From Rhizaria sp. SCN 62-66 (Eukaryota), in contig MEDY01000095.1 of the NCBI GenBank assembly GCA_001724265.1, forward strand, positions 62,001 through 102,933: 40,933 bases of DNA. Reading direction: 5' to 3'. The notes below the pieces were generated by a model. The model worked only from the letters and a program-made list of their open reading frames with translations. It was not told the origin of the DNA and ran no database searches. Positions 6,396 to 38,725 of the stretch are shown here, piece after piece. The number at the start of each line of letters is the position of its first letter. Within the stretch, counting starts at the first letter, position 1. Made by a program: the position numbers and the translations under genes.

Positions 6396-6439
<44 letters not shown>

Positions 6440-10841: not shown

Positions 10842-13800
10842 TCACTCGTCAAACTCATCGTTTGTGAACGCGGAGAGGACACTTGCACCAACAGCTTGTG
10901 CTTCACTCTCTGCTGCGGTTGCAGGTGCTGCAGATGCGGCTGCCGATGCGGCTGCTTTTGCTTGAGCCGCAGCTTGCGCCTCCGCTTTGACGCGAGCGCG
11001 CTCAGCAGCAATCTCGGCAGCAGCCTTGGCAGCAGCCTCCGCCTCTGCAGCAGCCTTGGCCTTAGCAGCCGCAGCAACAATCTCAGCATCAGCCTTAGCT
11101 TTCGCCTCTGCATCAGCCTTAGCTTTCGCCTCTGCATTAGCCTTAGCTTTCGCCTCAGCATCAGCCCTAGCTTTCGCCTCAGCATCAGCCTTAAGCCTTG
11201 CCTCAGTATCAGCCTTCGCTTTCGCCTCTGCATCAGCTTTTGCCTTTGCCTCGACCTCAGCTTGGGCATTTGCAGCGGCATCAGCAGCAGCGGCAGCAGC
11301 AGCAGCGGCAGCTTTAGCATCCATCTCCTCCCGAGCCTGCTGCTCCCTTGCCCGCGCCGCTTGCGCCTGTTGTGCTTGCATCGCTTGCTGTTGCGCAAGC
11401 CTTTGCTGATCTTGTTCTTGCTCGCGCTCCCGTTGAGTCTTCTCTAACTGCTCTTGCTGGGCCTGCTGCTGCTGCTGCTGCAGTTGTGCTTGCAGTTGCT
11501 GCAGCTGTCGCGCATGCTCTTGCTCCTCTGCGGCATCTTCGTCGTTGAACCTCAGCGTCCTTGCAGCGTCCGCGGAACTTGCCTTCTTGGGACCGGTGTT
11601 GTACTGACGGCGACCGTACGCACTGTTGCCCTCATAGTCATCCTCGTCCTCCTGCTCACAGTCACCCTGAGACTGCTCACGGTCACCCGGCACAGGGTCG
11701 CCGCCGCGTAGCCAGTCGCCGTCGTCCCCCAGCTCACTGTCGCCCCACCCCTCCAGCAGTCCCCAGTCGCCGTCGTCTGCGCCCCACGCGCCCACGGTCA
11801 CCAGCTCCCCGGCGTACCCCGCCGGCACCTAAGCGGCAACCGTGGCCTCCGTGGCGTTGACGGCAAGCACGACGTCGCGGCCCGAGGCGACTCGGCCGCG
11901 CGCGCGCGCGAGCTGTTCGTCGCCCCGGATCGCGGCCGCGCCGGCCAAGAGCACCGCGCCGCCGGGCCGCAGAGCCACCGCGCGCGCGCCTACAGTCGCC
12001 GTCCCACTGGCGAGTGACTCTGTGCCGGTCACAAGGGAGGAGGACGGAGGCAGAGAGGAGGGACAGGCGGGCTCGAGATTGACCAGCACCGAGCCGAGGG
12101 GGTCTTCGCACCATACCGCGCCGCCGCCGCCACTGACACCGGCGGCAGCCGGGGCGCTTAGACTGAGACTCCCCCCAACGGCAGAGGCGCCGCTGGCACT
12201 GGTGGCAAAGGTGGGCGCACTGCCAACACGTCCGTCGAGCTCCCCGTGCGGCTTAACTTCGGACACACGGAGCACGAGTAACGGCAGCTGGTGCCACGAG
12301 GCCGCCGCAGACAACACCACAATCGGCGGGGTCACGATCACAGACACTGTCGTACTGTCACTGTGAGCCGAGTTTGACTGATGGATGCTGTGACGAGGAC
12401 GACAAGGCGTAAGCTGAGACTGTGAGAACCCGCTCACAGACGCGCTACCACTGCTATTATTATCATAAACACTCGCGCCTATGTCTAAAGGGGTACTTAG
12501 CGCGTCTAAGGGCGGCGCCGCGGTGTAGAGCAGCGCGCACAAAGCCCACTGGTCCCGCAGCCGCCGCTCGTTGTCGTCGCTGGGCACGTCGCCGTAGCTC
12601 ACGCGCACCGCCTCGCGCCGGCCACCGCCGCAGCGTCGCATCGCCGCCACCGCAGACGCGTGGCTAGAGCCCACATTCACGCTGTTATGACCGGTGTTGC
12701 TGTTGTTGGCGTCGGTAGAGAGGTCGTAGAGGTCGTCGTCGAAGGTGTTGAAGGGCAGCTGCGCGACTGCAATCTCCCTCAGCGCTGCGGCCACGACGGG
12801 CTCTGCAAACACCGCGGGGCTGGGCGCGAACTGCAGCTGCGCGGGACACTGCGTAGTGCACTGCGTGGCGGACTGCGCGGCGACGTTTTCGAGCAAATAG
12901 TACACAGGCACATGCGACAACCGCTCAGTGCTATGCTGACTCTGAGGCTGACTCTGTTGGTGGTGCTGCGGCTGCAGCGCTGCAAAGTAGCGCGCGTGCT
13001 CCGCGGCCGCAGCGGCGTTGGGCAGTGCGAAGAGCGGCAGCGCGGGCGGCGGCTGCGTCAGCGCCCAGTGCTGCTGCAGGATCAAGTCGCTGTTGGCGCG
13101 ACCGAACACTCCGCGCGCGCGCAGGATAACCACGGCGGCGGGCTCGGCCGAGGCGGGGTAGCCCCACGCGCCTAGCGCGTCGTTGGGCGGCTGCTCACCA
13201 TCGTTCACAGCACCACTGCTCCCGCTACTGCTCCTGTTATCACTGTAAGTGTTGTCGTGATGAGCGAGAGCGTGTGTGGTGGTGGAGTTGGCGAGAGAAT
13301 TGAGACGCATGAGAGCGGCATGGTCGCTGCTGCTTAGCGTATTGAGCGCGAAAGCAAGCGTTTGTGACGGACCCGGTTCAGGGATAACGCTTGCGGACGC
13401 AGAACTGCTGCTGTTGCTGTTGCTGTTAGTATACGTGTCGTCGGAGTCAGCATTCGAGCGAAGATAGTGGTTTCGTGCGTTTAGGCGCGCGACAGCGTAC
13501 GCGCGGCGTGCGTAGGCGCAATACTCGTCAAAACAGGGCAACAGCGGGCCATCAACGTCAAGCCTGCCGTTGGCAAGCGCGGCAAAGAATGCAGCGTACG
13601 TCTGCGCGCGCGCGTGTCCGTGGCGGTGCAGCCAGAGGAAGACGGCACCGAGCCGCGCCAGCCCGACGCGCGCGAGCGCAGCGGACCAGGAGCCCCAGAG
13701 CCAGCGCTCGTCGGCCTGCAGCGCGGGCGGCAGCAGCGCTGGCAGCGGTGAGTCGCGATGCTGCTGCATGGCGGAGCGAAACGCGCGCGAGGGGCTCGTT

Positions 13801-13853
13801 GCGAACGGACTGGCGCCAGTGCTGGCGCGAGAGTCGAGGCCCGTGAAAGGCAT
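10842..13853 (-). CDS. ~1003-aa protein with a possible HROB/MCM8IP-like OB fold and a Q-rich plus AEAKAKAD-repeat tail; one in-frame TAG (11829-11831)
   Basis: ORFs 11829..13883 and 10842..11828 abut in one frame, separated only by TAG (EATVAA*VPAGYAG). First ATG at 13853; ends TGA. The segment QLPLLVLRVSEV...AVWCEDPLGSV...LRPGGAVLL...VVLAVN resembles the remembered HROB OB-fold pattern. Confidence 0.7.
11082..11252 (-). repeat. Coding 24-nt tandem repeat (~7 copies) encoding (EAKAKADA)n
   Basis: Repeated ctc(a/t)gcatcagccttagctttcgc-type units on +, translating as AEAKAKADAEAKAKAD. Confidence 0.9.
11829..11831 (-). other. In-frame TAG, putative sense codon
   Basis: GCC GCT TAG GTG CCG; coding-like sequence continues in frame on both sides. 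Confidence 0.75.
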
Positions 13854-15284: not shown

Positions 15285-17171
15285 CTAGATCGATAAAGGG
15301 AGAGATGACTATTAAATAAACAAAGCCATTGTAATTATTTGATACCGTATACGATTACTTGAGTGCATGGCCTATTGACTTTTGTCATAATTCATTGATA
15401 ACATCGAGTGATGGCAGACAAGCAAAGGAGGTTTCGAGGCCCTTGCCGTTGTGCATAATATGCCCGTATTTTATCAATGAAAGTTGGTTAATTATCAATA
15501 AATGTATAAAAAATACACTAATCTATTTGATTGTCAAGCTATACATTGATAAACAGCCGAATTACGAAACAATTGATGATTTCGCCTCTGACATCATCGT
15601 CTATTTCACACATCGACTTTGGCGAAGGTGAGTCCACAAAGTGACTTGGTCGCGACTTTACTTTGACATTCTTATAGTTAAAGGATCCAAGTCCTGGTGA
15701 AAAAGATCGATTTGCATTGAGTTATTATGTCATGAAAGGAAGATTTAACCGCGCAAAAACACACATTATGGATGTATGTATGTATGATTTTTTTAGGGTC
15801 ACAGAAAAACAAAAATTATTGACGATTTTCAAACATTTCTTGAAGGCCCTTGTAAATACTCGCCGCCGCCGGCGGTGCGGACGTTGTGTCTCACCGTTCT
15901 TGGTCAGACTCTTCGACAGTTCCTCATCAGTAAGCCCGAGGAAGCGGGTGAATTTGTTAGTCATGCTACTGACCCAGATCTCATTGCGTGCACTCACAGC
16001 ACGCTTCGTCCCCAGCTTGCGCTCCAAGCAAGGAGGCAGAAATGGCCGTCATATAGTCCGACATTGCGCTAAGTACGCGGCTCATAAACTATTGGAGCTA
16101 TGGGATCCAAGCTTAAGGTGAAAAAAACCGATTCGTATTGCGTTATTATTGCTAAATCATGAATTGCACCAAAGTGGTACCAATTCCATCAGTTTGTTCC
16201 GGAGAGTTCCAGAACTCTGAAACTGCTCACAGCAACAGACATGACCAGTATCATACGGATACATTGTTCAATTAATCTAGTCCCTCATCCAACGGTGTAG
16301 TTGTCCTATATTTCGATTGCTTCTGATATATTTATCACCATCTATTTTTGTTTGTACTCAGATGCGCCAGCTTGTCATCGTGACAAGGTCAGCTTTGATG
16401 TATGTCGTACATGTCAGAGTATGACATTTTTTTTAATCTAATGCAGTTTAAGTCTGTATCATAAATAAACGTGTTTGTTTTTGTGTTGCCTGATATAAGA
16501 GACATGATGCATAGCTTTTGCTTAGTGTTTTTTTTTTTGTAGGAGGAGACGTGGCTGGAGGGTTTGCAGGGGTGGAGTATAGTTGCTCGTAAAATGCAAT
16601 GAGTCCACAAATCAACCAAGGCAATGTATAGTACACACCCGGTTAATGCACAAAGTGTGCATTTCGAAGAACTTTGACGACAAAGCAGAACATATCGTTG
16701 GATATGGCTATCTCACCACAAACGTTTTTTCGCATAAAAGGAGGGCAACTGAGTTTATAGAAACGAGTATGAAGAGTTGCGAAATATCAGCACTAGACCA
16801 TATTATAAACACAAACGTTATGTTATTTTTCAAGATAGCGCCCCTATAGATTAAGCACTGGTTGTGAAATGTCAATAAGACAATCTTGGACGACGTGGGC
16901 AGCCGAACTGGAGCTTCGGCTTTGGAGCAGAGTGAAGGCCGTTTTAAATGACTTGATTGTGGAGAGAATGCACCGTAACATCCAATAAAACGCGCATTTC
17001 CTAAAGGTGTTTGTTGTATATGTAACGATATGTTTGTAATAACTCCATAAGATCAGAATTCCATGTGGCATCGCGAGTTTCTGTCTGTAGTGTCCAAAGA
17101 GGGAGACGTCGCCCCAACTAAATTTCCATCTCACCGCCTCATTTCGCCCTTCAATTCCTTGCAGCCACTTA

Positions 17172-17456
17172 ATGACCCTCACACACACGCCCTTCGCGAC
17201 CCTCTCGGCGGCCCCCGCGGCCGTTCCAGCGACGTGGTCGCTCGCCACCGCAGTCGGCGGCCTTCTGGCCCTGCTTTCGGTCGTCGCTGTCGCCGTCGTC
17301 ACAGTCACTGCGGCCGCCTCCCGCTCCGCCTCGGCCTCCGCCGCCGCTGACGCCGCCGCGGACGACCTCGGTGACCTGGGCGAGGACAGCATGTGCGCCC
17401 GCAAGCGCCCGCGCAGGCTATCGGACGACAGCAGCCCCGTCAGCGCGGTGCTTTGA
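17172..17456 (+). CDS. Small putative single-pass membrane protein (94 aa)
   Basis: GC-rich island in AT-rich DNA. ttccttgcag acceptor 7 nt before the ATG; hydrophobic stretch WSLATAVGGLLALLSVVAVAVVTV; acidic then basic (RKRPRR) tail; stop TGA. No family recognised. Confidence 0.5.
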   Translation: MTLTHTPFATLSAAPAAVPATWSLATAVGGLLALLSVVAVAVVTVTAAASRSASASAAADAAADDLGDLGEDSMCARKRPRRLSDDSSPVSAVL

Positions 17457-17930
17457 GCAGCACTCCTTCACAGCCGAGAGATGCAATAACATAACGTACA
17501 GCGTGGGTACTCGCTTGCGCTGCTAAAGAGCAGTCTAGATATGAGAACAGCACAAAATCACATTTCTAGCGTTGATGTGGGCTCGCCCGCGTTGCGCTGC
17601 ATGAATCAGGCCGCGTTTCAGCGACAGAGACTGTTTTCAGGCAGTACGAGTTCGAGAGACGACACGACGACGTATCACAGTTTGACTGACAAGAAGATCT
17701 GAAAGCGATGAAACGCACACGCAGACTTGTAATCACAGATAAAAAGAATCAACATACAAATAATTCACAGTAAAAACACAAAAGAAGCACAACATACACA
17801 TTAATTCAATCAATATTACAATAAGTACATCCAATTCTCGCAAGTTAAATCGCGCGTCTGAATCACGCCTTTCACATTGCTGTTCGACTAAATTTGCGGT
17901 CACCGTCGCGCTTTCCGAGTGGCGATTACG

Positions 17931-19409
17931 TTACAGCTCGAAGATGACGCTCTCGATGTCGCTGGGCTTGCGCCGGTGTAGCGGGACCGTGGTGAGCGCC
18001 TCCTTCTCCCACGCGAAGTCAAGCCGCCCGACCAAGTCGCCCATGGCCTGGCCGCGGCCAGCTGCAGCGGGCACACCGGCAGCGTCAGCGTCAGTGCCGT
18101 CTTGAGGAGCCTGTTCATGTTGCTGTTGCTGCTGCTGTTGCTCTGCGCGCGCGTCGGCGTCGTCCGTGCTGACACAGGCCTCGTTATCGTTTTTGTTAGC
18201 GTCACTGGAGGCGTGGTTCGTCTCACATGCGTTGCGGTAATTGTGACTATGACTGTGGCCGTGCCTGTGTGCAGCCGACTGCGCCGAGTGACCGTGGTCA
18301 GCGGCCCCGTAACCGTGGTCACGCTCCTGACCGTGGGCCGGCGAGCGGCACAGAGTGACCGTGGGCAGCAGCAATTGCGACGAGAGCGACCGCCTGTGCC
18401 CGCGCGAACGGCTGTGGCCGTGACCCTGAGCGGCAGCCGCAGCGGCGGCGTTAAAGGTCTCGCCACTGAACCCGTCCGTGCCGTCGTCGTAGTCGTCGGC
18501 GGCATCGACGTGGCGACTGTGCGTGAGACTCTTTTTGTCGTTATCATCGTCGTCGTCGTCGTCGTCGTCGTGTGCGTTGTTGTGTGCATTGCTAACTTGC
18601 GCTTGCTTTGCAATTACACCCGGAGCAGTCTCCGTCTCTGCCTCTGCCTCAGCAGCATTAACAGCGGCAATAGACCCAGCAGTTACAGCTGCGTCAGCGT
18701 CAACAGCTGCAGGAGAGGCAACACCAGCAGCAGTGGCAGCAGTGACAGTCTTACGCGCAGTGCTCGGGGCCGCTGCTTGGGTAGCTGTCACAGTCGCTGT
18801 CGGTGCCTCTGTCGTTGTAGTATTGACCGCAGAAGGCCCAGCGGCCGTCGCCACTGTCGCTGTCATCTGCAACAGCCGCGCTGACGCCGCCATCGCCGTC
18901 GCGCCCGCGACCGTGGCCGCCGCCTTCACACTCACCGCGTTCGTCGTTGTTGGAGTCGTTGTTGGAGTCGCGAGCGCTGAGCGGGCGCTGGGGTCGGCGC
19001 GCGGAGTGACCGGCATCACGGGCGCGGTCGACACGGCGGCGCGGGCGCGGCCGCGGGCCGGCGTCTGCATCTGCGAAAGTGACTGCGTCTGCGACTGGGA
19101 CTGGCTCGGCGCAGGGTTGACGGACAGACCAGGCAGAGACGCAGTCCCATTAGTCTTCGCACTCGCAGGCGCACTAGAGACCAAGACAGCGCTCACGGAG
19201 GCTGCAGCAGCCGCAGATCGGGGCGTTGCGGCGTTGCCACGCGGCGTCACAACACCGTTTGCGCCTGGGGCGGCAGCGACGGCGCGGGGACGTGACTTGG
19301 ACCGCGCAGGAGTGGCGCTGACGCTGGCGCTGCCGCCGGCGGAGAAGGCCGCCGTGGTCGCCGCCGCGGTCGTCGCGGGCGCCGGCAGGGTCGAGAAGTG
19401 CGGGTGCGG

Positions 19410-19442
<33 letters not shown>

Positions 19443-22400
19443 CTCGGCGGCGGCGGAGGCGCGTAACGCTTGCACTGTTGTCGACCAAGAGAAAGGATCA
19501 ATGTGATATGAAACTGTGAGAGTCAACGATATGTTGCGATTGAATAGTTATGCCGAGTAGGCTGTTGCATGCGTTTAATGTGACGTTTCACACACAGTTC
19601 AAATACGAGTAATTGGAAGAAATGTGAGACGTACGTTGCGCGTCTGTGTAGGCCTCCACGGTGGGGTGGGCCCGTGCAGTGGGGTCCCGCGCACGCCACT
19701 GCAGTCCCCACAGCGTGCGCAGCTCCTGCTCCTCGCGCTGCACCCACAGCGCCTGAGCGTGTCGCAACACAACATACGAAGAAGTCGCGGAATACAACGA
19801 TATGAACAAAGATGAGCAATTGTAAATACAAAACAGTAAATTACAAAAATAACACAGACATAATAATAAACACATATTCCTAGGTCATATCGCGTATATG
19901 CATACCTTAAGCTTCGTTTCGTCAGCGTTGACCTTCTTCAGCACGGGCGACACGAGCGCCGCCACGCCTGCCGCGGCGCCGTGCCTGGCGTAATACGCGT
20001 CCCTGCGCGCCGCAACGGCTAGCAGGGCGTCCTGGTGGCCGCGGCGCAGCACGCCGATGCGCGCCTGCTGCGCGTCGGCGGCCGCGGCGGCGGCGGCCAC
20101 GGCGGCCGCGGCCTCGGCTTCGGCGTGCCCGGGCGCCGCGGGGTGACTGTGGGCGGGCAGGTGACCGTGGGCAGCGGCGGCGCGGGACGCGGAGCGCGGG
20201 GTCTGCGGCGTCACAGTCGTCGCACCTGTCGCACTCGCATAATTCGTTGCAGTACTTGCTGTAGTTGTTGCAGTCCGCGCGGGAGTTCGGGCCCGCATGC
20301 TCGCGCCCGCGCCACTGTTCGCCCCCGCACTGAAGCTGCTGCCGCTGCTGCTGCTGCTGCTGAGCGCGGCGCTGCTGTGCGCCGGCATGCGCGCCGTGGC
20401 CGCGGAGGAGCCGAACCCGGCGCCCGTGCGGCCGCGCGATCGGGAGCGCGCGGCGGCCGCGGCGGCCACGGCGGCCATCGAGCCCCACTGCGGCTGCGTA
20501 GACACCGGCCCTCCACTGGCACTCGCGGTCACACTTGCAGTCACGCTCGAAGTCGCAGTCGTCGTGCTTCGAGTGCTCGCACGGGTGCGGGAGCGGCTGG
20601 TGAGGCGGGCCGACGGCGTCGCAGCGCTCGGGTTTGTAGCGCTGCTCTTGGCAGGAGTCGCCGCTGTCGCAGCCGCTGTCGCAGTCGCTGCTGCGGCGGG
20701 GCGGGAGCTGGGGGTGGCTGGGGGCGAGCGGCGGGCAGGCGTGCGGCCACGGGTTCCGGTACTGGCGCTCGCACTGAAACTGGAGCCCGCAGTTGCACTT
20801 CGCGGGGTTGCCGTCACGGCTGAGCTCGTGCTTGGACGAGAGCGCGGCGACGGCGACGGCGACGGCTTGGGGCTCGCACACACACTTGGGGGGTCCATGT
20901 TGGTCGCGGCCGAGGGCGGGCGCAGCACGCGGCGCGGGGTGACGGGGGGCTGCCACGGTGACTGCTGCTTTTGCTGCGGCTGCGGCTGTGAATGCAAGGC
21001 AGACTCGCTGTCGGGCAGCTCCACGGTGACTGCAGGTGCCGTGGTGAGTGTAGACGCAGCGGCGACAGCGGGCTCAGATTCGGGCTCTGGCGCGGAGGCA
21101 GCGGCGCCGACTGGGTTCTTCGCACTTGTCTCTGCCTCAGCCTCAGGCTCGGTCTCCGCTGTTTCAGTCTTCATCTCAGCAGCAGGCTCGGACTCCTCGG
21201 TGTTGGTGACATGGCCAGACTCTGCTTCAGCATTCGCGGGATCAGCTACAGTCTCGGTTGCATCGAACAGTGCACTCGTAGCATCAGTCTCGGCAGTGGC
21301 AGCCTCAACAGCAGGTTCCACAGCATCAGATGTCTCAGTGGCACTTACGCACTCAGCGGTCGCTGTGGACTCAGCAGCAGAGCTTGCCTCAGCCCCACCA
21401 GTCTCGACGGCGAGAGCTGCAATAACGGAGACGGACTCTGCGGACTCTAACGTAGGCTCAGTGAGGCTCTCAATTACTGCTTCAGCAGCGACAGTCTCGG
21501 GCACAGGCACAGTGGCTGACTCGGCAGCAGCTTCAGCACCCGGCCCCCCCTGCGCAGCGACAGGCTCGGGCACCGCCGTCTCCGCCATAGCCTCCGCAGT
21601 GGGCGCAGTCTCAGCCTCAGCCTCAGCCTCAGCCTAGGTTTCCACAGCGACTGCAGGTGCATTAGCCATGCTCTCAGTCTCCGCCGTGGCAGCGGTCTCA
21701 GAGGTCGCTTCAGCTTCAGCTTCAGTCTCAACAGTCGAGGCGGTTGCTTCAGCGTCAGTGTCATTCTGAGCTGGAGCGTCACCCTGAGCAGGTGCTTCGG
21801 CGTCAGTCTGGACCTCAATCTGAGCGGAGGCTTCGACCTTGACCTCGTCCACCTATGTCTCCGGTCTCTTCCCCTTATCCGCCCTCGCCGCGCCGCCGTG
21901 GTGTGTTCCCTAGCGTTTGCGCGGGGGCGCGTCGTCGGACAGACGGCCGCCACCGCCACCGTCGCCGTTGTCGGGGTCGTTGAGTTCGGCCTGGACTTGG
22001 GCGGCGATTGCGGAAAGGTTAAGCCGCGGCAAGGCCACGACAGGCGTATCCTGGGGGATAAGCAACTCCTCATCCTCATCGTCATTATCGTTGTCATTCT
22101 CGTCGCCGTTGCAGTTGATACCGTGCACGACGCTGCGTCTACAGCTCACCCCGTCCACAGCGACCGGCGCCGCCACTGCGACGCCAGTGTCGTTCAAACT
22201 GTCACGGTTAATATTGCCGTCATCATCCTGATCGTCGTCGTCGTCGTCGTCGTCGTCGGGACAGCCCCACGGCGACGCCTTGGCCGCCGCCGCCGCTGAT
22301 GCCGGCGGCGGGGAGCGGCCGGGCCGCTGGTAGTAGTACACAGACTCCGAGAACAGCGCATTCGCGGCGCTGTGCACCGTGTCGCTCTGCGCAGCACTGG

Positions 22401-23202
22401 CGCTCACAGTCTCAGGCATACCACTCTTCGTGTTTGTGTTGCTGTTGTTGTTGGTGCCGGTGGCAGTGACGTCTGAGGCTGAGCGCATCAACACGTCTAA
22501 CCCACCTTTGCCCTTGCCTTTGCCCTCGCTGTCGGTGCCTCTCGCGCCAACTGTGCCGCCGCCACTCGGCAGCGTCAGCACCGGGTCCGACACCGGCACC
22601 GACCCAATTGGAGCGGAAGTGTTGATATGAGCAGCGGCAGTGGCAGCGGCGGAGACAGGAGCGGGAGCGGGAGCGGGGGCGGGGGAGGGCGAGGGCGAGG
22701 GCGAGGGCGACACCGGCAGCGTGAGCGCCAGTGGGGCCACTGCAAAGGACGAGTTGGGCGACAAAGCGGCCGTCGCGGCAGCAGTGCCGCACTCGGCAGC
22801 AGCGGCATCAGCGCCGGGATCCGCCGTCGTAATAGCATTCGCTGTCAGGAAGGCAGACGCGGCGAGGACTTGGGCAGCGGCGACGACAGCCGAGGCTGTG
22901 CTATCACTCGCACTGCTAGCAACAGGCGCACTCGCAGTCGCCGTCTTCACGGCAACAACGCCGACGCTGGTCGCATAAGCTGTGGCAGTGGCGGCCGCGC
23001 TGGTCGGCGAGGGCGCGGGCGAGTTGGAGGCACTCGCAGCGGCTGCGGCGGCTTTGCTAGCCATGCGCGCCTTCAACAGAGACGCCACCTTGGAGTTCTT
23101 CTTCTCCCGCGCGGCGGTAACCGTGGGTGACGCCACGGGGCTCGACGCAGGCTTGGGGGCGGCCGCGGCAGGCGAGGCCGGGGTGGCGGGGGGAGAGGAC
23201 AT
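17931..23202 (-). CDS. ~1652-aa Ala/Ser/Thr/Glu-rich protein of unknown function; 3 exons (23202-19906, 19752-19635, 19474-17931); three in-frame TAGs
   Basis: ORFs 21910..23298, 21634..21852 and 19885..21588 share one frame broken only by TAG. GT-AG introns 19905-19753 and 19634-19475 keep phase (ETKLK|ALWVQREEQE...YTDAQ-L-QALR). Ends SDIESVIFEL-TAA. Confidence 0.75.
21634..21912 (-). other. Cluster of three in-frame TAG codons (21910-21912, 21853-21855, 21634-21636)
   Basis: PPRKR*GTHHGGAARADKGKRPET*VDEVKVE...APAVAVET*AEAEAEAET. Confidence 0.8.
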
Positions 23203-25345: not shown

Positions 25346-25826
25346 GCGCTTGGTAGAGCGTCTTTGTGTACACACTATAGTCGCGCAGTGATGCGTTGCT
25401 GCGCTTGTTGATATCAGTTTCGAGGTCAGTTACTTGATGGCCGCAGTGACTTAACATGGTATATCGTCATATGAAGGTATAAATACATTTCCGGTAAATT
25501 AAAATGCAAGTCCAGCGAGATAACCACTTTTCAGCTTCATAAACCTTCACATCTGCGCTTATATCAAGTCCAAACGTAGATTTTGTGACTGTGAAGCTTT
25601 GCAAAGCCAATGAAGGCCGCGACAAGTATGCAATCTTCACGTCTCTAATGCGCCGTCAGAAGTCCGTCATTAGCCTCCGTGCTAATCCCTCGATTAGACA
25701 ACATTATAGAAATTACGATATATTTACGACACCTGCGATGAATTTGTTTTCACCCTTAATCGGTTCTGAATTCTAATCTCGCTTCTCAACCATGTGCTTT
25801 CGTCCCGTTGACCGCGCTTCCGCAGC

Positions 25827-28548
<2,722 letters not shown>

Positions 28549-29466
28549 CCGAGCACGGCCCACAGTCAATTAGACAAGCGTAAGTGAGCACGGTCACCGA
28601 GAGAGACGAGTGTGCCTGACGGTGTAAGGCGTGTTGCGAGTTGAGTTGCTGGGTTTTTAAGTCGAAGTCGAGTGGAGGTGTATTTAAATTTATGCATCGT
28701 TGCGTGAATGCGTGCTGTTGCTATTCATATTCATTGTGGTCAGTATGGTCATATTTTTATTACTACTTTATACAAACCAATCTTAATCATAACCATAACA
28801 AAGTCTATACGTTTTTGGAGTAAGTACATTCCTGTATTGAGTTGTGATTCCGATTTTGCTTAACGTTTAAAGCTTTGTCTGACACCGTGTGATTCACGAC
28901 ACTGACGTTTGACATCAGTCGATGTGAAGGAAAGAGCCAGAATGCCACTGGCGCGAAATTGCGTTGTGGTTATCATTCGCGACAGAACAGATAGCAAGGA
29001 CAATAGCGTGAAGACACATGGGACGACGGAAAAGCTTCCGACACACATTGTATGCGGACATAGACAGCGTGTGTGCGAAGCAAGAGTATCGCGAGCGTAA
29101 GAGACAACATCAAAGAACAGAACGACAAAAGATACAGAGGATCGAAGGCGCATATTAAAAAAGTGTTGTTGAACGGAAAACGTTGTTTGGTGGTTAGCGA
29201 GGAAAGCACGGGAAAGTTTGGTAGTGGGTTCTGTGCGACGAGCTAATCTGAAGTCACTCTTAGGAGCGACATCAAGTTGACTGTATCGCGGAAATCACAG
29301 CACAATGAAGTTTGGTTTGGTTTGGGTGAGGGCGCACACTGGTTTGGGGCGGGACTCACACTGTGTGCAGCGCGTGGCACGAAATACTCAGTGTTTATGG
29401 TGAGCATGTACGGTCCATACAAGCACGAGCACTATATGCAGTTAAATGAATCAAAACACCGCGTGT

Positions 29467-30384
29467 TTACTCAGACACTGACTCGTCGCTGTCAGCGTTG
29501 TCATGACCAGCGCCAGCGCCGGCACCCGTGGCGTCATTGCGGTGATCCTGTGCATTCGCGTTGTTGTTGCCTCCTTCGACGTCGCCGCGAGCGGGCACGA
29601 CCACGGAGGTGCGGTCAATCTCGTCGTCGCTGCCGTCGTGGCCACCGCGAGCGTCATTGTCGTTGCCGTTCTCGCGCTCGCGCTGGGCCGCGGCAGCCGT
29701 CTGCTCGCGCTGCATACGCTCAAGCGCCTGCGTGGCTTGCGTCAGCTGCTGCTCAATCATCTCGAGCTGCTGCGGGGTCAGCGCCTGGCCCCCGCCGCCC
29801 TGTTGGGTCAAGGAGAGGCGGAGCGTAAGCGTGGCAAAGTAGGACAGCACGGTGATAATCCAGACGATGATGACCATGGCGAGCGTGAAGAGGTACAAGT
29901 CGTTCTGGCACGCGTGGTGGTAGTAGCTCATCTTGTCCAGGAACACAGTACCGACAATGACCCAGGCGAGGCAGGCAGTGGAGAACAGGTAGCCGGTGTA
30001 AAGCGCAACCTTGGGCCGCAACGCAAACCAGCGCTTGAAGAGCTGGGTGATGAAGACCTGACCGGCGACGAGAGAGCCGTAGACGATGTTCCACAGGGCC
30101 AGGTCCTGCTCACAGTAGTCGGACCAAAACAGCCCGCCAACAATAAAGAAGGAGGCAATAAAGCCCAGGCTAATAAGCACGGAAAAGAGCATGCAACATA
30201 GCACGAATGCAACGCTCTGTAGGAGTTTGATATGTTGATGACAGTCGTCATATGGTGTCGCAAAAGGAGTAGCCAGAAAAAAGTGGTGTGTGGTGCGCGA
30301 AGATATTGGTGAGTTTTTCAGCAATAGATGATTGACAAGTGAGTCGCAACTTCACAGGGACAAAGACACTTGCTCAAAGGTCAT
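29467..30384 (-). CDS. Four-TM membrane protein, TMEM272-like; exons 30384-30370 (tentative) and 30216-29467
   Basis: Four hydrophobic helices with the C(EQD)LxxWxxxxG ... WVIVGTVF ... C...LY pattern, then an acidic tail; stop TAA. The short first exon MTFEQ is inferred from an in-phase GT..CAG. Confidence 0.7.
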
Positions 30385-31105
30385 GAGCGCTGCATCTTTG
30401 AGTCAACCCGAGGAAGATATATGTGGTAATCGTAAAAAAAGCATTTGGCACGCGAGCAAAAGAGGGGGATGGTTCTCAGTCAAGACGTACGCCGTTAGCC
30501 ATGGAGTGCGCTGCAGTGGAAAGCAAAATTCAAAGACAAAATATAAAGCGAAAATGGTTGGGTATCAAGATACATGTGCGAAACCGAGTTGAAATACCAA
30601 TTTTACACGTCAAATATGGTTTTTCTGCTGAACCAAGAAGCCGGCTTCGACACGAGCCGGACCATAACTCTGTCTGAGAATTTTGTGCAGAAGTCCTGTG
30701 ATGGAATAAAACAAGAATTAGTGAACACATCTATTACAAAGACTTAAGCGTGATTCAAACAACGCATCGCAATTACAGTGGCGTGAACTCGCATGAACTT
30801 GGTTGCCGCGTTTGGTTTCAGCCGGTTTGTCCGCTCCTCTCCGCTAACCGACACAACGAGTGGAGAGTATCAAAAAGTCACCTTTACCCATTTAAATCGA
30901 TGTGTTTTAGTCTCTCATGAAAATACAGTAATTTTAACGTAGTAAAATATGCAGTTCTCGATGAAAAGTGAGATATTATGTATTCTTGTGCGTGTGATGG
31001 TGACATTTGAGTTTTAAGTAGTTCTCACCACAAACGCGTTTTACGCTGCACCAAACCTCTATTTCGGTGATTCCAGCGCATATCCCGTCACTGGCTCATG
31101 CCGCT

Positions 31106-34100
31106 TTACTGCGCCTCGATGGGCGGCGTCGCGATGGTCAAGTCGGCGCTGCCGGCCTCCTCAGCCGTCGCGTCCTTGCCCTCGTCAAGCACACTCAGCG
31201 AGAGCGACTCTGCCAGCGATGCTTCCCCCTGCGGCTCACCGTGACTCTGCTGCTGCCGCTGCGCGTGCTCCGGCTCCAGCTCGTGGCCCTCGCCCTCAAC
31301 CTCGGTCTGCGGCTCGGCTTCGACGTCGTCTTCGTCGCCGCCCGCAGCGCCCACGGTCACCACGGCCTCGGTTGCACTGTACGCGTCGCCCGCCTCGGCC
31401 TTCCTGCCCTTGCGCTTGCCCACAGCTTTCTTGCCGCCGCCAGTGCCAGCCTTCTTGTGGCCGTCGCCGGGCGCCGAGGCCTTCTTGGAGCCAGCAGCGC
31501 CGCTACCGCCCTTGCTGCCGGCAGCGGCGCCACTAGACCTGCTCTTAGTACTCTTCGTCGCAGTCGCATTCACTTTACCTTTACGGCCAGTGCTAGCGGC
31601 GGCGGCGTTGCCTTCCGCAGCAGCGCCAGCTCCGTCGCTCGGAGCAGCGGCGGACTCGGCCGCAGTGAAGTGCAGCCCCGCCAGCGCGCCTTTGCCCCCG
31701 GCGCCCGCCGCTGCCGCAGCCGCCGCCGCCGCGCCCGAGTGGCCGTGGCCGTAGCTGCCTCTGACAGAGACCAGCGGCGCCAGCCCCAGACCCAGCCCGG
31801 CCGACAGCCGGCGCGCGAGCCCCAGCGGCGAGGCCAGCGCGCCGTCCGCCCCCGGTGCGAGCCCGTTGAGAGAGAGGCTGACGCCGCGCCCCAGCCCAGG
31901 AGCCAGCTGGCCGCCGCTCCCGCCGACGCCGCCGCCGGTGCCGTCGCCGCCGGCCTGGCTGGGCGTCGAGGAGCGCGGGCGCAGCAGCGCGGCGGCGGCG
32001 GCGCGGCGTAGCGCGCGGCCACGGGTGTCGTACGCTGTTAGCATCTGCTCCAGCCGGCCGCTGGCCAAGAGCGCGAACGATGCCTGCGTGAAGCCCGTGG
32101 CGGGGTCACCGGTCACCGCGCGCGTGGCCGCTGCGGCGGCGGCTGCGGCTGCTGCTGCGGCGGCGGCAGCGATGTCAGCAGGGGACATAACCGCGTTGCT
32201 GTTGCTGCTGTTGCTGTTTGCAATGGGGAAGCTGTGAGTGCGCGTGTGCGAGTGCGCCGAGTGATCGTGAGCAGCAGAGGTTCCAGCGGTCCCGGCGGCG
32301 CCGCGTGGCACGAGTGCATTGTAGCCCGAGTCGCCGTTGCTGCTATTGGCGTCGTCGTCCTCGTTATCTTCGCCGTCATCGCTGTGGCTGTAATGCCCGT
32401 GCCGGCCGCCGCCGCCGCTGCTGCTACTGAATGTAATACTGTCGGTGGTGCTACGACGGCCCCCCACCTGCTGCTGTTGTTGCTGCTGGTGCTGGTGCTG
32501 GAGCTGTTGCACGCCGCTCCGTCGCCAGCCCGCGCCGCTGTTGCAAACGTCATCAGCCGCGGCGGGCGCGGGGAGGCGGATGGAGACGCTATTGCCGAGC
32601 CCGTCGATGAGCGACACGTCTTCTGCGCCCTCCTCGATCACGAGCCCGGGGCCCGTGCTACCGGGCCGCCCCAGCGGAGGTGGTGGCTGCTGCTGCGGGT
32701 CAGAGGCGGGCATTGAGCGGCCGAATCTGCCTCTCGCACCGCCGCCGCCGCCACCGCCGTATGAGTCGCTGTCGCTATCGCCATCGCCGTCGTCATCAGC
32801 GGTCGAGGCGCCGCCGCCGGAGCCTCCCGCGGCGCTGAGCGCGCAGCGGCCCGACTGCGCGCGCGCCCGGTCGCGCTCGCGCTCGCGTTGACGACGCACC
32901 ACTGCGGCCGCCGCGGTCGCAGCCATGCGAGCCGCGCTGTCGCCCGCGCTGAGCGCCGCGACGGCCGCGCGCTTGGTCTCGGCGAGCCTGTCGACGGCGG
33001 CGCCCGCGAGCGAGGCGACGAGGTCAATCACGGCCGCCATTTCATCGGGTGTGTTGAGCGGCATCAACGGGCCCAGCAGCGACTTAACTTTGAGAAGGTC
33101 GCCCACGGTCACGAGCCCGTCGCCGTCGCGGTCCAGCGCGGCGAAGGGCGCGGCGACGGCCAGCTCTTCGGCCCACAGCGACTGGTGCGGCCGCAGCGCC
33201 ATCTGCGCCCAGAAGTCCTCCAGGTCGACGCGGCCGTCGCCGTTGGTGTCGAGCTCGGCCAGGATCGCCTGCAGGTCCACCTCGGGCAGTGCTTCCTCGC
33301 CGAAGAGAGAGAGGATGCGCTGCAGGTCGCTGGCCTGCAGGTACCGGCCGGAGTCCTCACGATCTTTGTGCCCGTGGCCGTGGCCGTGGCCGCCGCCGCC
33401 GCCGTTGTTGTTCTGCGCGTTGCGAGAGTTATTGCCGGAGCGACCGCCGCCGCCAGTGCCAGTGCCAGCGCCAGCGCCGCCGCGGCGGGCGCTGCTGTTG
33501 CCCGCAACGGGGTCGAGGCCGTCGTCGCTCTGGTGGCTCGGAGTGCGGCGGTGACCGCCGCGAATCACACGGCCTCCGGGTCCGCTCGTCGTGCCGGTGT
33601 TGTTATTGCTGATGTTGTTGGCGTTGCTGCTGTTTACGGAGCGCAGACGCCGCAGCCCCGCGGGCCCGATAGCGGAGCTCGCACTGGTCGGCGTCGGGAT
33701 GAGATCCCCGCCGGTGTAGTTCCCTCCCGGCGTCGCGCCGCCGCCGCCGTTGCCGCCGCTGTTGTTGTTCGGGAAGCCGAGATAGGGTGACCGGCCGGAG
33801 GGCGCGTGGGGCCGCTGCACCAGCACGGGCGTGTTCCCGCCCACGCCTATAGTACCACGGCGGGGGACCTTGGGCGACAGCGCGCTGAGGATGCCAGACT
33901 GGATGCCGCTGTCGCCAGTCGACCTGGCGCTGGCGCTCGCGCTAGACGCAGAGGACGACGACGCTGATGACGACGAGTCAAGCGGCATGCCGCCGTTGCT
34001 GCTGTTGTTGCTGCCTGCAGCGCCAACGGTGGCGCCGTTCGGCAGGACCAGAGTGACCGTGGGCGCGGGCGCGGGCGCCTGCGCGGTCTGCATCGCGCCC

Positions 34101-35857
34101 CCACTGCCCTCGCCATTGACCGTATCAGAACTGCCGTCTGCGTCACTATTGTTGTTGCTCCCCGCGTTGAGCGAGCGCGCCGCGGAGCCAGGGGATGCCC
34201 AGCCTGCGGGGCGCGGGAAAGGCGCGACGCCTGTCTGCGGCAGCGGGGCCTGCGGCGCGTGGCGCTGCAGCGACGCCAGCGTCGGCCTCGCCCAGGAGGG
34301 GCCCGACTCGACCGCCGCCGCCAGCGCAGCAGCCGCCACTGCATCAGCGTCAGCGGTGGCCTCACCTGTCGCACCTGCAGCACCTGTGGCGGCTGCGTTG
34401 ACGCTTACACTGGCACCGGGGACGAGTCCGAGCGAGGCGGCTGCGTGTGGCGGCAGCTCGCCCAGCGGAGTGTGCCACAGCGATGAGATCTGGCTCGGGG
34501 ACAGCCCGTCGAACCCGGCCTCCGGCAACGCGCCGACGCTCGTGGCCAGGAGCGCGGGCGCGCGCCGCACCGTCTCCAGCAGCAGCGACGGCGTCTGCTG
34601 CTGCTGCTGCTGCTGCGCGCTTGCAGCGGCAGCGGCGGCAGCCATGACGGCGACAGCCGGCCTCCCGCCCGCGCTCACCGCGTCGGCGTTACTGGGGTTC
34701 TGCGCCAGTGCTCTGATGAGCGCGTCCTCTTCCTGAGCCATGAATGAGTGTTTGCGCCCGCGTCCCCGGGGTCCTCCTGGCCCGCCGCGGCCGGCGCAAC
34801 CCGCGGAGCTGTCGCGGCGGCCGCGCAGGTGCAACGGCGTGCTGATGCGGTCCCGGTGGCCGTCGCTCTCGTCGCCGTCCGCGTCGTCATCGTCGTCGTC
34901 GCCTGCGTTGGCGGCGCGCGGCCGCAGCCCGCCGTCCTGGGCGGCGTAATGCAGCGCGCTAACCAAGTCCGCCATGCTCTGCACGGGACCAGAGCCGCGC
35001 CGCGCCGCCTGCAACAGCGACGACGACGACGATGACGACGACGAAAGACCGTTACTGCCGCCGGTGTCGCCCGCCGAGGCCGCGCCCGCGCCGCCGGCGG
35101 CCCCCGCGCCAACCGCGCCGTTGGTGGGCGTGCTGAGCGTGCCGACGGACTTGATCAGCGCGAAGAGCGCGTGCAGGTGCGCGAACTCGTCGTCCTGCCG
35201 CAGCAGCTCTGGGACGCGATCGCGGAAGCGGATGCCGCCTGGCGCGGGCCGGCCGCTGCGGGCAATGGCAAACGCCGCCGCAGAGGCCGACAGCGCGCCC
35301 GCGCCCGCCGCGCCGCCGGGGCCCGCGCCCGCGCCCGCGCCCGTCGCGGCCGCTGCTGCTGCTGCGGAAGTTGAGTTTGCTGAGGCAGGGTTGGAGGCCG
35401 AGCCGGGGAGCGCGGCGACGCTGCCGCGGCGGCCCCCGCGGCCAGCGCCGGGCACGGGGAAGAGGGAGAGCACCGTCTTGTTCTTCTGCCATGCCGGGTG
35501 GCCGCGCGCGATGTCGCCGGGCGTCAGCTGGGCGATGTTGCGGGCGCCGACGTCAGCGCCCGCGGCGACGAGCGCGGCAACCGCGGCCGAGGAGCGGCCG
35601 CAGAGCACCGCGTAGTGCAGCGCCGTGTTGTGGTAGCGGTCCGCCATCGAGGGCAGGTTGTGCGGCTCACGTGGGTAGAGCGGCAGCAGCAGCTGCAGCG
35701 CGGGCCAGTGACCGTGCATCGCCGCGAGCATCAGCGCCGTCTGCCGGTCGGCGTTGACTTCGGTCGCGACGTGCTTCGTGTGGCGCAGCTCCTGCTGCAG
35801 CTCCTTCACGCGGCCCTCCGCGGCCAGCGTGTGGAAACGCAGCGGCGTCGGCTGCAT
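31106..35857 (-). CDS. Ankyrin-repeat + EF-hand protein with long low-complexity linkers (1583 aa, intronless)
   Basis: N-terminal ankyrin motifs (QTALMLAAMHGH, NTALHYAVLCG, GADVGARN...TPGDIA). EF-hand loops DTNGDGRVDLEDF and DRDGDGLVTVGDL at ~33090-33250. Stop TAA. Confidence 0.88.
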   Translation of the reverse strand: MQPTPLRFHTLAAEGRVKELQQELRHTKHVATEVNADRQTALMLAAMHGHWPALQLLLPLYPREPHNLPSMADRYHNTALHYAVLCGRSSAAVAALVAAGADVGARNIAQLTPGDIARGHPAWQKNKTVLSLFPVPGAGRGGRRGSVAALPGSASNPASANSTSAAAAAAATGAGAGAGPGGAAGAGALSASAAAFAIARSGRPAPGGIRFRDRVPELLRQDDEFAHLHALFALIKSVGTLSTPTNGAVGAGAAGGAGAASAGDTGGSNGLSSSSSSSSSLLQAARRGSGPVQSMADLVSALHYAAQDGGLRPRAANAGDDDDDDADGDESDGHRDRISTPLHLRGRRDSSAGCAGRGGPGGPRGRGRKHSFMAQEEDALIRALAQNPSNADAVSAGGRPAVAVMAAAAAAASAQQQQQQQTPSLLLETVRRAPALLATSVGALPEAGFDGLSPSQISSLWHTPLGELPPHAAASLGLVPGASVSVNAAATGAAGATGEATADADAVAAAALAAAVESGPSWARPTLASLQRHAPQAPLPQTGVAPFPRPAGWASPGSAARSLNAGSNNNSDADGSSDTVNGEGSGGAMQTAQAPAPAPTVTLVLPNGATVGAAGSNNSSNGGMPLDSSSSASSSSASSASASARSTGDSGIQSGILSALSPKVPRRGTIGVGGNTPVLVQRPHAPSGRSPYLGFPNNNSGGNGGGGATPGGNYTGGDLIPTPTSASSAIGPAGLRRLRSVNSSNANNISNNNTGTTSGPGGRVIRGGHRRTPSHQSDDGLDPVAGNSSARRGGAGAGTGTGGGGRSGNNSRNAQNNNGGGGGHGHGHGHKDREDSGRYLQASDLQRILSLFGEEALPEVDLQAILAELDTNGDGRVDLEDFWAQMALRPHQSLWAEELAVAAPFAALDRDGDGLVTVGDLLKVKSLLGPLMPLNTPDEMAAVIDLVASLAGAAVDRLAETKRAAVAALSAGDSAARMAATAAAAVVRRQRERERDRARAQSGRCALSAAGGSGGGASTADDDGDGDSDSDSYGGGGGGGARGRFGRSMPASDPQQQPPPPLGRPGSTGPGLVIEEGAEDVSLIDGLGNSVSIRLPAPAAADDVCNSGAGWRRSGVQQLQHQHQQQQQQQVGGRRSTTDSITFSSSSGGGGRHGHYSHSDDGEDNEDDDANSSNGDSGYNALVPRGAAGTAGTSAAHDHSAHSHTRTHSFPIANSNSSNSNAVMSPADIAAAAAAAAAAAAAAATRAVTGDPATGFTQASFALLASGRLEQMLTAYDTRGRALRRAAAAALLRPRSSTPSQAGGDGTGGGVGGSGGQLAPGLGRGVSLSLNGLAPGADGALASPLGLARRLSAGLGLGLAPLVSVRGSYGHGHSGAAAAAAAAAGAGGKGALAGLHFTAAESAAAPSDGAGAAAEGNAAAASTGRKGKVNATATKSTKSRSSGAAAGSKGGSGAAGSKKASAPGDGHKKAGTGGGKKAVGKRKGRKAEAGDAYSATEAVVTVGAAGGDEDDVEAEPQTEVEGEGHELEPEHAQRQQQSHGEPQGEASLAESLSLSVLDEGKDATAEEAGSADLTIATPPIEAQ

Positions 35858-36266
35858 CGGGGCGCAAGGACGCGAGGGTCACAGGGGCGCGCGAACGGGG
35901 GCGCCAGAAGGGGAGGAACGAGCTGGTGTGTTTAGGGAAGGGAGTGAAGTTTGGGGAAAGCTGTAGGAACAAGAAGGCCATTTTGTGAGTTTTAATTTCA
36001 TAAAATGAATGATCCATACGAGATAAATACGGTACCATTAACTAGAGCAGGTGACACGGATTAAATCCGGCTTTCTGACGAGAAACGGTTGCTGCACCAC
36101 AGTCACATCGAGTCGAACCTTTTTGTGACCACCACTGACCGGGGGTCAAGTCCGTCAACTTCACATGTCTGCCGTGTCCCGCAACCACCGTAGTTTAGCA
36201 AACAGATAACTGTTCACAACTGCACGATTATTATATCATCAACATTTGTTATTATCTTTCCAGGAC

Positions 36267-38725
36267 ATGAGGTCTGCGCTACTCTGCCGCCGGACTCTTG
36301 CCCGCGCCCCGACTGCGCTGTGCTCGGCGTTCGCGCTGGCGCCCGCAGCATCTGCCGCCTCGTCCCTAGCCTCTCTCCCCACACAGTCACTCGCCCAGCT
36401 ACCTCGCCGCGCCGCCTCCACCGCCCGCGCGACATCCCTGCTCTCCACGCCCCGCGTCGCCGTCCCCGGCCTCTACAGCTCCAAGCTCGCGATCTCGAGG
36501 CCGACCGTTGCTGTTGCTGCAGCGGCTGTCTCTGTTTCCGTCGCAGAGTTCGCCACGGCCGCCGCACCGCGCCCGCTGCCCCCGCGCGCCGCCGCCGCGC
36601 TCGCCCTGCTTACTCGTGCCGTGTCCTCGACCGCGACGGCCGTCGTCCGCCTCGAGTCCGCCGCCGCCTACTCCTCTACTGCAACTGCGACCCCCACCAC
36701 CGCGAACAACAACGCCGCCCGCGATGCCGCATCCGCTGCTGTCCCGGCGCTGCGCGCGGTGTCCGCGCTGCTCGCCCGCGCCGGCGCCTTGCCCCCCGCG
36801 GCCGCCGACTCCGGCCGCGGCCACGGCCACGGCTCACGGTCGTAGTCTGCCGAGGCGGAAGCTCTCAAGTGGGCCCTGAGCGCGGTGATTGCCGCCGTGG
36901 CCGCATTCGTCGCCGCCTCCACCGCGGCCGACTGCGCGCCCTACGTCACGGGCGAGTACGACACGGGCGCGCCGCCGCCGCCGCTGGCGCCCGCGTACAC
37001 CGAGAAGGCCCGCGCCGCGCGCGCGTATGCCCACAAAGTCGTCGACAGGTATGAGGACGAGTTCGCCCACCAGGTCCGTCTTAGCGCTGTCACATAGCGA
37101 GAAGTTTCTCAACTATATCTTGCTTAATTTGCAAAATATTTACCAGGACCATTAAATAATGTATGCTACATCTATCATATGTACTTTAGTATTTATAAAT
37201 CCTAATCTCATTGATATATAACCTATGTTTTTTCTCCCTCCCCGGCTTCAGGTCGACGTGTGCCGCGCCCGCAAGGACCCTTTCGGCAACACGTTCGACC
37301 CGTCGCCGATGACGACCTACGAGTGGGCGAAGATGCTGTTCAACTACACAATTTTCCCCCTCGCCTGGATCCGCGCCGGCCTCTTCATTCCCCTGTTCAT
37401 CACTGTATGCGCTCTGGGCAAGCTGTCTACACTGGGCCTCAATCTGAGTCCCGAGAACCAGTACGGCATGCTCCAGCCGCAGCAACAGCGCTGGCGCCGC
37501 GCTATCAAGCGCTCTATGCGCTACGTCATCCGCGCCGCACTCTTCGTCGCCGGCTTCCACCGCATCACCGTCACGGGACAGCGCGCCGACCCCGTCGAGG
37601 CGCCCATCGTGGTCAGCAACCACATCTCGCTCGTCGACGCCGCGCTGCTTTTCATGATCTACGACGGACCCATGTTCATCTCAAAGGCACGCTATAATAG
37701 CGTCATACTTTTGATGTCTTATAATATTTCACGTATTGATAACATCTTGGTGCTCTATTTCACTTTTTCATTTAACTCTCGCTCACTTTTCACTCATTCC
37801 TTCCTTCTGCACTTTGCGCTATACTTCGCTACAGAAGTCCGTGGCGTCCGTCCCTGTGCTGTCTTGGGCCGTCACCGCCTGCGGCGCTATCCTGGTGGAC
37901 CGCCAGAGCCCGACGTCGCGCCACGACACGCAGGTCGAGGTGACGCGCCGCGCGCATTACAACGAGTCGATCCGCCGCCTCCGCAACGGGCTCCGTACGT
38001 CGACGGTCACAAAACCTACGATTTATATTTAATGATACTGTCACATAGCGATATAGTACGATTAATATGTGGCAATTATTGTATTTTATATTCCTCATTA
38101 GTGTTGTTGCTATAAGTATCCCCCTTGCAAGTTTATGATATCTTCTGACATTTCCTGCCATTTGTTTTTGTTTCGCACAGCCGCGTTGCCCGACGCACCC
38201 GAGGGCCTGACTGCTGACTCGGTGCCCTACGACCACCTGCTGCTCTTCCCTGAGGGCACCACCACGACTGGCAGCACACTCATTGCCTTCAAGGCTGGGG
38301 CCTTCCGCCCTGCTGTTCCCGTTCAGGTACGCCGCAATTCATGAACATTTGAATTGATTCCATTCAAATCTCTTTGATATTAGCTACTCTTTGTATTGTC
38401 ATGCAATTTTGGATACTAACACTCTACTATTATTATTTCACTTCATTTTTCTTGTGCGCATATCCCGCCCATTCTGCACACTGCGTAGCCCGTGGCGATT
38501 TCGTACCCGCACCGGCACTTCAACCCCACCGACGCGGGCCCCAACAAGCGTTCCGCGCTCACGCCGCTGCGCCTGCTGGGCCAGTTTAGCATCGAAGCGC
38601 GCGTGGCACTGCTGCCGCCGATGGTTCCGCAGCAGGGCGATACGGCGACGACCTTCGGCGGCCGCGTTCAGGTGGCCATAGCGGATGAGCTTAACATCGA
38701 TGTTGCACCCGTGTCTGCGTATTGA
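36267..38725 (+). CDS. Lysophospholipid acyltransferase (PlsC fold, LPCAT/LPEAT-like), ~594 aa, 5 exons (36267-37073, 37252-37686, 37835-37994, 38181-38326, 38489-38725); one in-frame TAG
   Basis: VSNHISLVD (HX4D), FISKKSV..VP, ILVDR, LFPEGTTT, FKAGAF, PVQPVAISYP. Long presequence-like N-terminus with TAG at 36843-36845; stop TGA. Confidence 0.88.
36843..36845 (+). other. In-frame TAG, putative sense codon
   Basis: GHGHGSRS*SAEAEALKWALSAV; the frame continues to the donor at 37074 with no Met after the TAG in exon 1. Confidence 0.75.
37687..37834 (+). other. GC-AG intron
   Basis: AAG|GCACGC...ctacag|AAG restores the motif FISK|KSVASVP. Confidence 0.8.

Follow-up and report, generated by a model that had tools for sequence, protein, structure and literature searches.

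Is UAG still a stop codon in the organism from which contig MEDY01000095.1 derives? The question is raised by positions 62,001 to 102,933 of this contig (assembly GCA_001724265.1, forward strand), a stretch of 40,933 nucleotides that was analysed as a whole and is called the window below, in which five in-frame TAG codons interrupt three otherwise intact genes: gene A and gene B, both encoding low-complexity proteins, and a gene for an acyltransferase. From the existence of these TAGs, their frame, their exon-like context and the intact state of the genes we infer that UAG is probably translated as an amino acid, perhaps at an early stage of reassignment (a probability of about 0.55), and that this might hold genome-wide. 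Translation of UAG is the best single explanation and accounts at once for all observations, including the absence of TAG from all ten gene ends established. One stretch of 41 kb is no proof of a changed code, and we regard the finding as a well-supported suspicion, not as a demonstrated code.

The window is composed of alternating very GC-rich blocks (GC content 0.60-0.84) and AT-rich spacers (0.34-0.50), the former being exons and the latter introns and intergenic DNA. Nine introns were set by homology in the genes for a seryl-tRNA synthetase (SerRS), a PHPT1/Janus-family protein and the acyltransferase; they measure 133-241 nt, with a GC content of 0.34-0.41, and those with exact boundaries are of the GT-AG type, one apparently beginning with GC. 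Since GC-rich exons are split by AT-rich, homology-defined introns, the window is eukaryotic nuclear DNA. As multi-gene chromosomal DNA with exons of 65-80% GC and introns of 130-240 nt, it is unlike ciliate macronuclear genomes.

Coding sequence on both sides of the in-frame TAGs

Translation of the window confirmed all five in-frame TAGs, which had been reported by a sequence-only reading of the same DNA. Open frames are uninformative alone in such GC-rich DNA, the window containing 101 open reading frames (ORFs) of at least 150 amino acids. Because chance open frames are this abundant, we applied a codon-usage likelihood score, trained on the other genes of the window, and compared all six frames. 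A leave-one-gene-out control placed the true frame first in 71 of the 74 segments of 216 nt and in all segments of 399 nt (39 of 39) and 600 nt (25 of 25). For each of the 11 segments flanking the TAGs, the frame carrying the TAG outscored the other five, both upstream and downstream in gene A and in six of six segments of gene B, with margins ranging from 1.8 (for a segment of 54 nt) to 69.6; in ten non-coding controls the margin between the top two frames was 1.6-12.1. The GC content over the 200 nt past each TAG was 0.59-0.74, compared with 0.37-0.57 past the ten gene ends, and for the TAG of gene A it was 0.77 upstream and 0.71 downstream. The claim that coding sequence continues in frame on both sides of the TAGs thus holds.

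The gene models comprise 9303 codons with five TAG, no TAA, no TGA and no frame break, in agreement with the earlier statement that neither premature TAA or TGA codons nor frameshifts occur; from positional base frequencies, 82 TAG, 17 TAA and 15 TGA codons would be expected in frame if unconstrained. The hallmarks of pseudogenes, namely frameshifts, mixed stops and downstream loss of signal, were not found, as codon-usage margins and GC content beyond the TAGs are the same as in intact genes. The sequence-only reading had counted 11 gene ends, five with TAA and six with TGA. Its observation that none is a TAG stood, its count did not: ten ends were established, six with TGA, four with TAA and none with TAG, in a small sample (n = 10) in which two of the ends presuppose read-through of a TAG. 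Three of the ten (SerRS, the PHPT1-like gene and the acyltransferase) are fixed by relatives or by the end of a Pfam profile.

The acyltransferase gene is the strongest of the TAG cases. Its relatives carry the Pfam domain PF01553, and tblastn with them showed that each alignable exon, i.e. exons 2-5 and the end of exon 1 beyond the TAG, is intact. The motifs NHxxxxD and FPEGTTT are present, and the C-terminus (...VSAY followed by TGA) agrees with the ...AY ends of relatives P0078-P0082. The relative P0078, from a JGI contig of 4.4 kb, is 70% identical in exon 2, and its residues 1-61 align with residues 207-266 of exon 1 of the window at 54% identity. This alignment begins 14 residues downstream of the TAG; the coding sequence of the acyltransferase therefore reaches to within 14 codons of it. 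As P0078 runs without an intron from exon-2 back into exon-1 sequence, the splice 37073/37252 is confirmed. Between the TAG and exon 2 there is no in-frame ATG, and the first methionine lies inside exon 2, after the conserved DPF motif. In the full-length, more distant relatives P0079-P0082 the catalytic domain is preceded by 100-440 residues with a basic, presequence-like start followed by a transmembrane segment. Initiation at ATG 36267 and read-through of the TAG would, judged from the sequence, give exactly this N-terminal architecture, whereas under the standard code the gene would yield just a leader peptide of 192 residues.

Two features of the acyltransferase introns were observed besides. 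Intron 2 (37687-37834; AAG/GCACGC ... CTACAG) is a probable GC-AG intron, since the end of the preceding exon is fixed by an FISK motif conserved in the relatives. Furthermore, P0078 has no intron at the junction of exons 1 and 2 (window 37074-37251) and seemingly shares the intron after FISK, which indicates intron gain or loss between close relatives.

Gene A encodes an orphan protein with an acidic, Gln-rich C-terminus containing an AEAKAKAD-repeat region, and an exact ORF of 674 amino acids that ends at its TAG is recorded from seven contigs. The C-terminal part (10845-11430, minus strand) consists of imperfect octapeptide repeats of the AEAKAKAD type behind a Gln-rich stretch and yields spurious matches to surface and kinase proteins of bacteria (including PF08017). 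In gene B, a contig from a polyA-RNA library covers 21083-21395.

Contigs of four sequencing runs were compared with window positions 19000-38999, a range outside which the TAG of gene A lies. The contigs of DNA run X3, from an independent study, are identical to the window over 21115-22553 (record 1) and 35823-38703 (record 8), with no difference, and cover four of the five TAGs unchanged. Run X8 spans the TAG at 21634 with one unrelated difference, and none of the 40 listed of 57 differences between contigs and window falls at a TAG. Assembly or sequencing error is excluded as the source of the TAGs. Between strains, genes A and B have three variable sites, too few for a selection test.

Coordinates of the genes with in-frame TAGs and of the SerRS gene. 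Positions are those of the window; in amino-acid contexts the TAG codon is written between hyphens.
Feature	Position	Strand	Description
Gene A	10842..13853	-	about 1003 codons; ATG 13853, TGA 10842; orphan low-complexity protein
In-frame TAG of gene A	11829-11831	-	...ATVAA-TAG-VPAGY...; +4 base G
Gene B	19885..23202	-	about 1105 codons; ATG 23202, TGA 19885; Ala/Ser/Thr/Glu-rich low-complexity protein
Gene B TAG 1	21910-21912	-	...PPRKR-TAG-GTHH...; unchanged in DNA contig X3 record 1
Gene B TAG 2	21853-21855	-	...KRPET-TAG-VDEV...; unchanged in DNA contig X3 record 1
Gene B TAG 3	21634-21636	-	...AVAVET-TAG-AEAEAEAE...; heads a (GCTGAG)n run; spanned by X3 record 1 and X8 record 25
SerRS gene	25827..28548	+	mitochondrial-type; 5 exons, no in-frame TAG, TGA stop at 28546
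Acyltransferase exon 1	36267..37073	+	PF01553-type (lysophospholipid/glycerolipid); presequence-like N-terminus, TAG, then transmembrane segment and linker
In-frame TAG of acyltransferase (codon 193)	36843-36845	+	...GHGSRS-TAG-SAEAEALKW...; unchanged in DNA contig X3 record 8
Acyltransferase exons 2-5	~37252-37686, 37835-37995, 38183-38326, 38489-38725	+	all intact; tblastn with relatives P0078-P0082

Readings of the in-frame TAGs

If UAG is translated, it would be decoded as an amino acid by the ribosome, with UAA and UGA left as the stop codons; as in other reassigned codes, this would presumably involve a tRNA with the anticodon CUA that decodes UAG and a release factor eRF1 that recognises it poorly. 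Several observations weigh against this reading, as do the differences in UAG frequency from known lineages given in the next section. The sequence-only reading had noted that TAG is rare as a sense codon, and it is indeed so: five of 9303 codons (0.054%), in three of about ten genes, 16-fold below the 82 expected. Widespread use of UAG, in most genes, was not found in the 41-kb window. The ORFs of 3284 and 1590 codons contain no TAG at all, while gene B has three within 92 codons, a clustering with a chance of about 1 in 1000 under uniform placement by our own arithmetic. None of the five TAGs stands at a residue conserved in relatives, all five lying in low-complexity or disordered stretches, and the amino-acid meaning of UAG is for this reason not readable from them. 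For gene A, the 41 protein matches were P0036, which is the gene's own ORF truncated at the TAG, and low-complexity matches, with no true homologue among them. Within the window there are no tRNA genes, no Rfam matches and no gene for eRF1. The contigs listed from the polyA metatranscriptome (X5; 21083-21395 and 36438-36782) include none that crosses a TAG, and a single 41-kb locus of a single strain provides all the evidence. Because sense UAG is so rare, translation of UAG must assume a young or inefficient reassignment, in which its sense use would still be confined to weakly constrained, disordered stretches.

Two signals bear on the amino acid that UAG might specify. An internal alignment of gene B (28 nt, 24 identities) pairs the TAG at 21634 in its context with a GAG. 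Moreover, within 12 residues of the five TAGs, Glu makes up 10% of residues against a background of 3.8% (P=0.02, with no correction for the 11 residues tested); for Gln the values are 0.8% and 4.8%. These data give a weak hint that UAG might mean Glu, having arisen by GAG to TAG changes; the Glu signal is compatible with such a change and equally fits nonsense mutation of Glu codons. A more specific scenario can be put forward tentatively, as one that we would sooner doubt than accept: a non-ciliate, GC-rich wastewater eukaryote early in a UAG-only reassignment, possibly to Glu, in which UAG is gone from gene ends, makes up about 0.05% of codons and is found in disordered regions only, i.e. 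in the "codon capture" phase, which is no longer visible in the established cases.

The nonsense mutation just mentioned leads to the rival explanation that the code is standard and the TAGs are true premature stops, which would make low-complexity genes that are dispensable and evolve fast, plus one copy or allele of the acyltransferase, into nonsense alleles or young pseudogenes; the bias towards TAG would result from GC3-rich codon usage. The sequence-only reading had dismissed decay on the ground that it would not give TAG only, an argument that did not survive the calculation: 69-73% of random single-base nonsense changes would, at the codon usage of the window, produce a TAG, so that five out of five would have a probability of 0.16-0.20. 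"TAG only" is thus weak evidence, because codons ending in G or C dominate and several frequent ones (GAG, CAG, AAG, TCG, TGG and TAC) are a single change away from TAG; the expectations from positional base frequencies (82 TAG, 17 TAA and 15 TGA) yield an equal proportion of TAG. The 16-fold depletion of in-frame TAG is also what would be seen for a stop codon, the placement of the five sites in low-complexity or disordered sequence away from conserved residues and the accumulation of three TAGs in gene B suit nonsense mutation as well, and an intact second allele could be hidden, since Logan contigs drop rare variants. We nevertheless consider premature stops unlikely. They would require three of about ten neighbouring genes to have been disrupted by five nonsense changes, with no frameshift and no TAA or TGA in 9303 codons; decaying genes generally acquire frameshifting indels no less often than nonsense changes. 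The codon-usage signal and the exon-like GC content are undiminished after every TAG. Because 582 codons of gene B are still free of stops beyond its third TAG, truncation followed by neutral decay is disfavoured for this gene, and the acyltransferase is intact in all alignable exons up to its conserved C-terminus. The absence of TAG from ten out of ten gene ends likewise speaks against premature stops.

That the gene models themselves are at fault, so that each TAG is the ordinary stop of an upstream ORF or gene and the sequence beyond belongs to separate genes or is translated from non-AUG or internal starts, appears improbable to us. Chance long frames are common in DNA of this composition, as the ORF count given above illustrates, a prokaryotic gene caller has placed a GTG start 14 codons after the TAG of the acyltransferase (P0083), and an in-frame ATG follows the third TAG of gene B after 16 codons. 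Yet the downstream frame equals the upstream frame at all five TAGs, for which chance would be (1/3)^5 by our own arithmetic if the frames are independent, and no AT-rich spacer resembling the real intergenic regions lies at these sites. No in-frame ATG follows the TAG of gene A for about 190 codons and, as described, none precedes exon 2 of the acyltransferase, whose relatives begin 100-440 residues ahead of the catalytic domain with a presequence-like start, as the protein would from ATG 36267.

A standard code combined with repair at the RNA level seems very improbable. The TAGs would then be removed either through A-to-I editing of UAG to UGG or as the 3' ends of GC-rich in-frame introns, and no RNA contig among those listed crosses a TAG. 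All five TAGs could formally serve as YAG/TAG acceptors, with 167-779 candidate GT..AG spans per site that preserve the frame. Every such span able to remove a TAG, however, has a GC content of at least 0.58, compared with 0.34-0.41 in the nine real introns, and scores as coding in the frame of the TAG; on both grounds, introns hiding the TAGs were rejected. The polyA-library contig that ends just upstream of the acyltransferase TAG (36438-36782) is unspliced. Editing has a precedent in filamentous ascomycetes, where, according to the excerpts of PMC11156358 and PMC10776026 used here, A-to-I editing prefers U at position -1, often hits UAG and restores dozens of "pseudogenes", which would produce TAG-specific interruptions of otherwise intact ORFs like those in the window. 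In contrast to these ascomycetes, a preference for hairpin loops was not seen here: structure prediction places the A of the TAG in a hairpin loop at one of five sites, compared with 30 of 67 off-frame TAG controls, and the fungal editing context is not enriched. Moreover, nothing indicates an ascomycete, the nearest named homologues of the SerRS being non-fungal.

Translation of UAG thus is the reading we prefer, in a more restricted form than the sequence-only reading had given it when it concluded that the organism has a code with UAG as a sense codon. What stands are real in-frame TAGs in exon-like context, genes that are otherwise intact and the lack of TAG ends; what does not is the extension to an organism-wide code, with about ten genes in the sample, a TAG frequency far below that of established cases and no conserved site.

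Comparison with known UAG-reassigned lineages

Reassignment of UAG alone breaks the usual coupling of UAA and UAG, and the lineages in which it is known are few: one rhizarian, one fornicate and some ciliates. The rhizarian exLh (Sainouroidea) reads UAG as Leu and keeps UAA and UGA as stops, with 384 in-frame UAG codons in 71 genes according to the excerpts of PMC5304391 considered here. The likeness to the window is that a non-ciliate eukaryote, as the window organism probably is, has only UAG in frame while its gene ends use the other two stops; the same excerpts describe UAG of exLh as rarer in ribosomal protein genes (PMC5304391). In contrast, UAG is abundant in exLh and stands at conserved Leu residues, whereas the window has five among its 9303 codons, all outside conserved positions; furthermore, the weak hint here is Glu, not Leu, and the host of exLh is an insect, whereas the window organism is found in wastewater (excerpts of PMC5304391). 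In the fornicate Iotanema spirale, also covered by these excerpts, UAG means Gln and UAA is kept as a stop (PMC5304391). It has the restriction to UAG in common with the window, but here Gln is depleted near the TAGs, as given above, and the frequency of UAG is very different (PMC5304391, in part).

The earlier statement that UAG-only reassignment is rare needs qualifying, since phyllopharyngean ciliates add three independent cases. In these, the excerpts of PMC11687900 report UAG as Leu (three TARA metagenome-assembled genomes) or Gln (Hartmannula and Trochilia), in-frame UAG in 78-91% of genes, and suppressor tRNAs. They resemble the window in the reassignment of UAG alone, in the use of UAA and UGA as stops and in having been found by mining metagenome-derived assemblies; however, in-frame UAG is present there in 78-91% of the genes and here in three of about ten (PMC11687900, in part). 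For UAG as Glu there are precedents in the oligohymenophorean ciliate PL0344, where UAA means Lys and UAG Glu (PMC10553269, in part), and in Blastocrithidia, where UAR means Glu (PMC12153298, in part). In both, as far as these excerpts go, UAA is reassigned too, whereas the window has no in-frame TAA and four gene ends with TAA (PMC10553269, PMC12153298).

In our search of the full-text literature, with the supplements of the cited papers outside its scope, no description of a eukaryote with reassigned UAG from wastewater or activated sludge came up. Reassignment of UAG alone, with UAA and UGA as stops, is already known, and the window organism would be a new, probably non-ciliate case if confirmed, with its sparse sense UAG as the unusual feature. 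If true, this further independent non-ciliate case would inform the question of how codes change. If the sparseness is genuine, it might expose an early stage, in which UAG first ceases to act as a stop and then spreads as a sense codon into unconstrained sequence, a stage that is predicted by theory and rarely observed. For annotation the TAGs already matter: standard-code gene callers have split these genes, and the fragments P0036, P0077 and P0083 are present in public protein sets.

Origin of the DNA and other features of the window

Several studies of bioreactors and wastewater have metagenomes in which the stretch is found almost in full, and part of it is present in a polyA metatranscriptome of activated sludge; the window is a contig of an uncultured eukaryote from this environment. 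Elsewhere the contig extends over 81 kb or more. The SerRS gene served as a control gene and as a source of the intron statistics. Its best named matches are from vertebrates, dictyostelids and a green alga. The nearest SerRS cluster in the Atlas carries just a weak label, "Bacillariophyta commonest", and the clusters of the acyltransferase are dominated by plants. The exons of the SerRS catalytic domain contain long Ala-rich insertions (27790-27990 and 28230-28360), which the relatives do not have and which appear as gaps in the alignment. Searches for further loci with the protein of a gene with ankyrin repeats and EF-hands (Ank-EF-hand gene), in metagenome and genome contigs, and with P0078, in metagenome contigs, found none.

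Donor sites in the window are mostly GTACG, GTCCG or GTAAG, and the contrast in GC content between exons and introns is extreme throughout; this signature might help to bin other contigs. On the minus strand, one uninterrupted frame of 3284 codons or more (3-9854) exits the left end of the window; it is very GC-rich and of low complexity, and within it neither a Pfam domain nor an in-frame stop of any kind was found. A GC-rich probable first exon (MLSSPRSPRSS...ERVAKG) lies at 17200-17467, minus strand, followed by about 2 kb of AT-rich DNA (15300-17100) with no clear coding signal. The sole TAG-terminated ORF noticed (16844-17467) runs out of this probable first exon into the AT-rich sequence. 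Finally, in the ankyrin region of the Ank-EF-hand gene (35669-35792), at least 14 positions within 124 nt distinguish the contigs of runs X4 and X5 from the window, nine of the listed differences being synonymous and five non-synonymous. These samples therefore seem to contain a further strain, species or paralogue that is more divergent.

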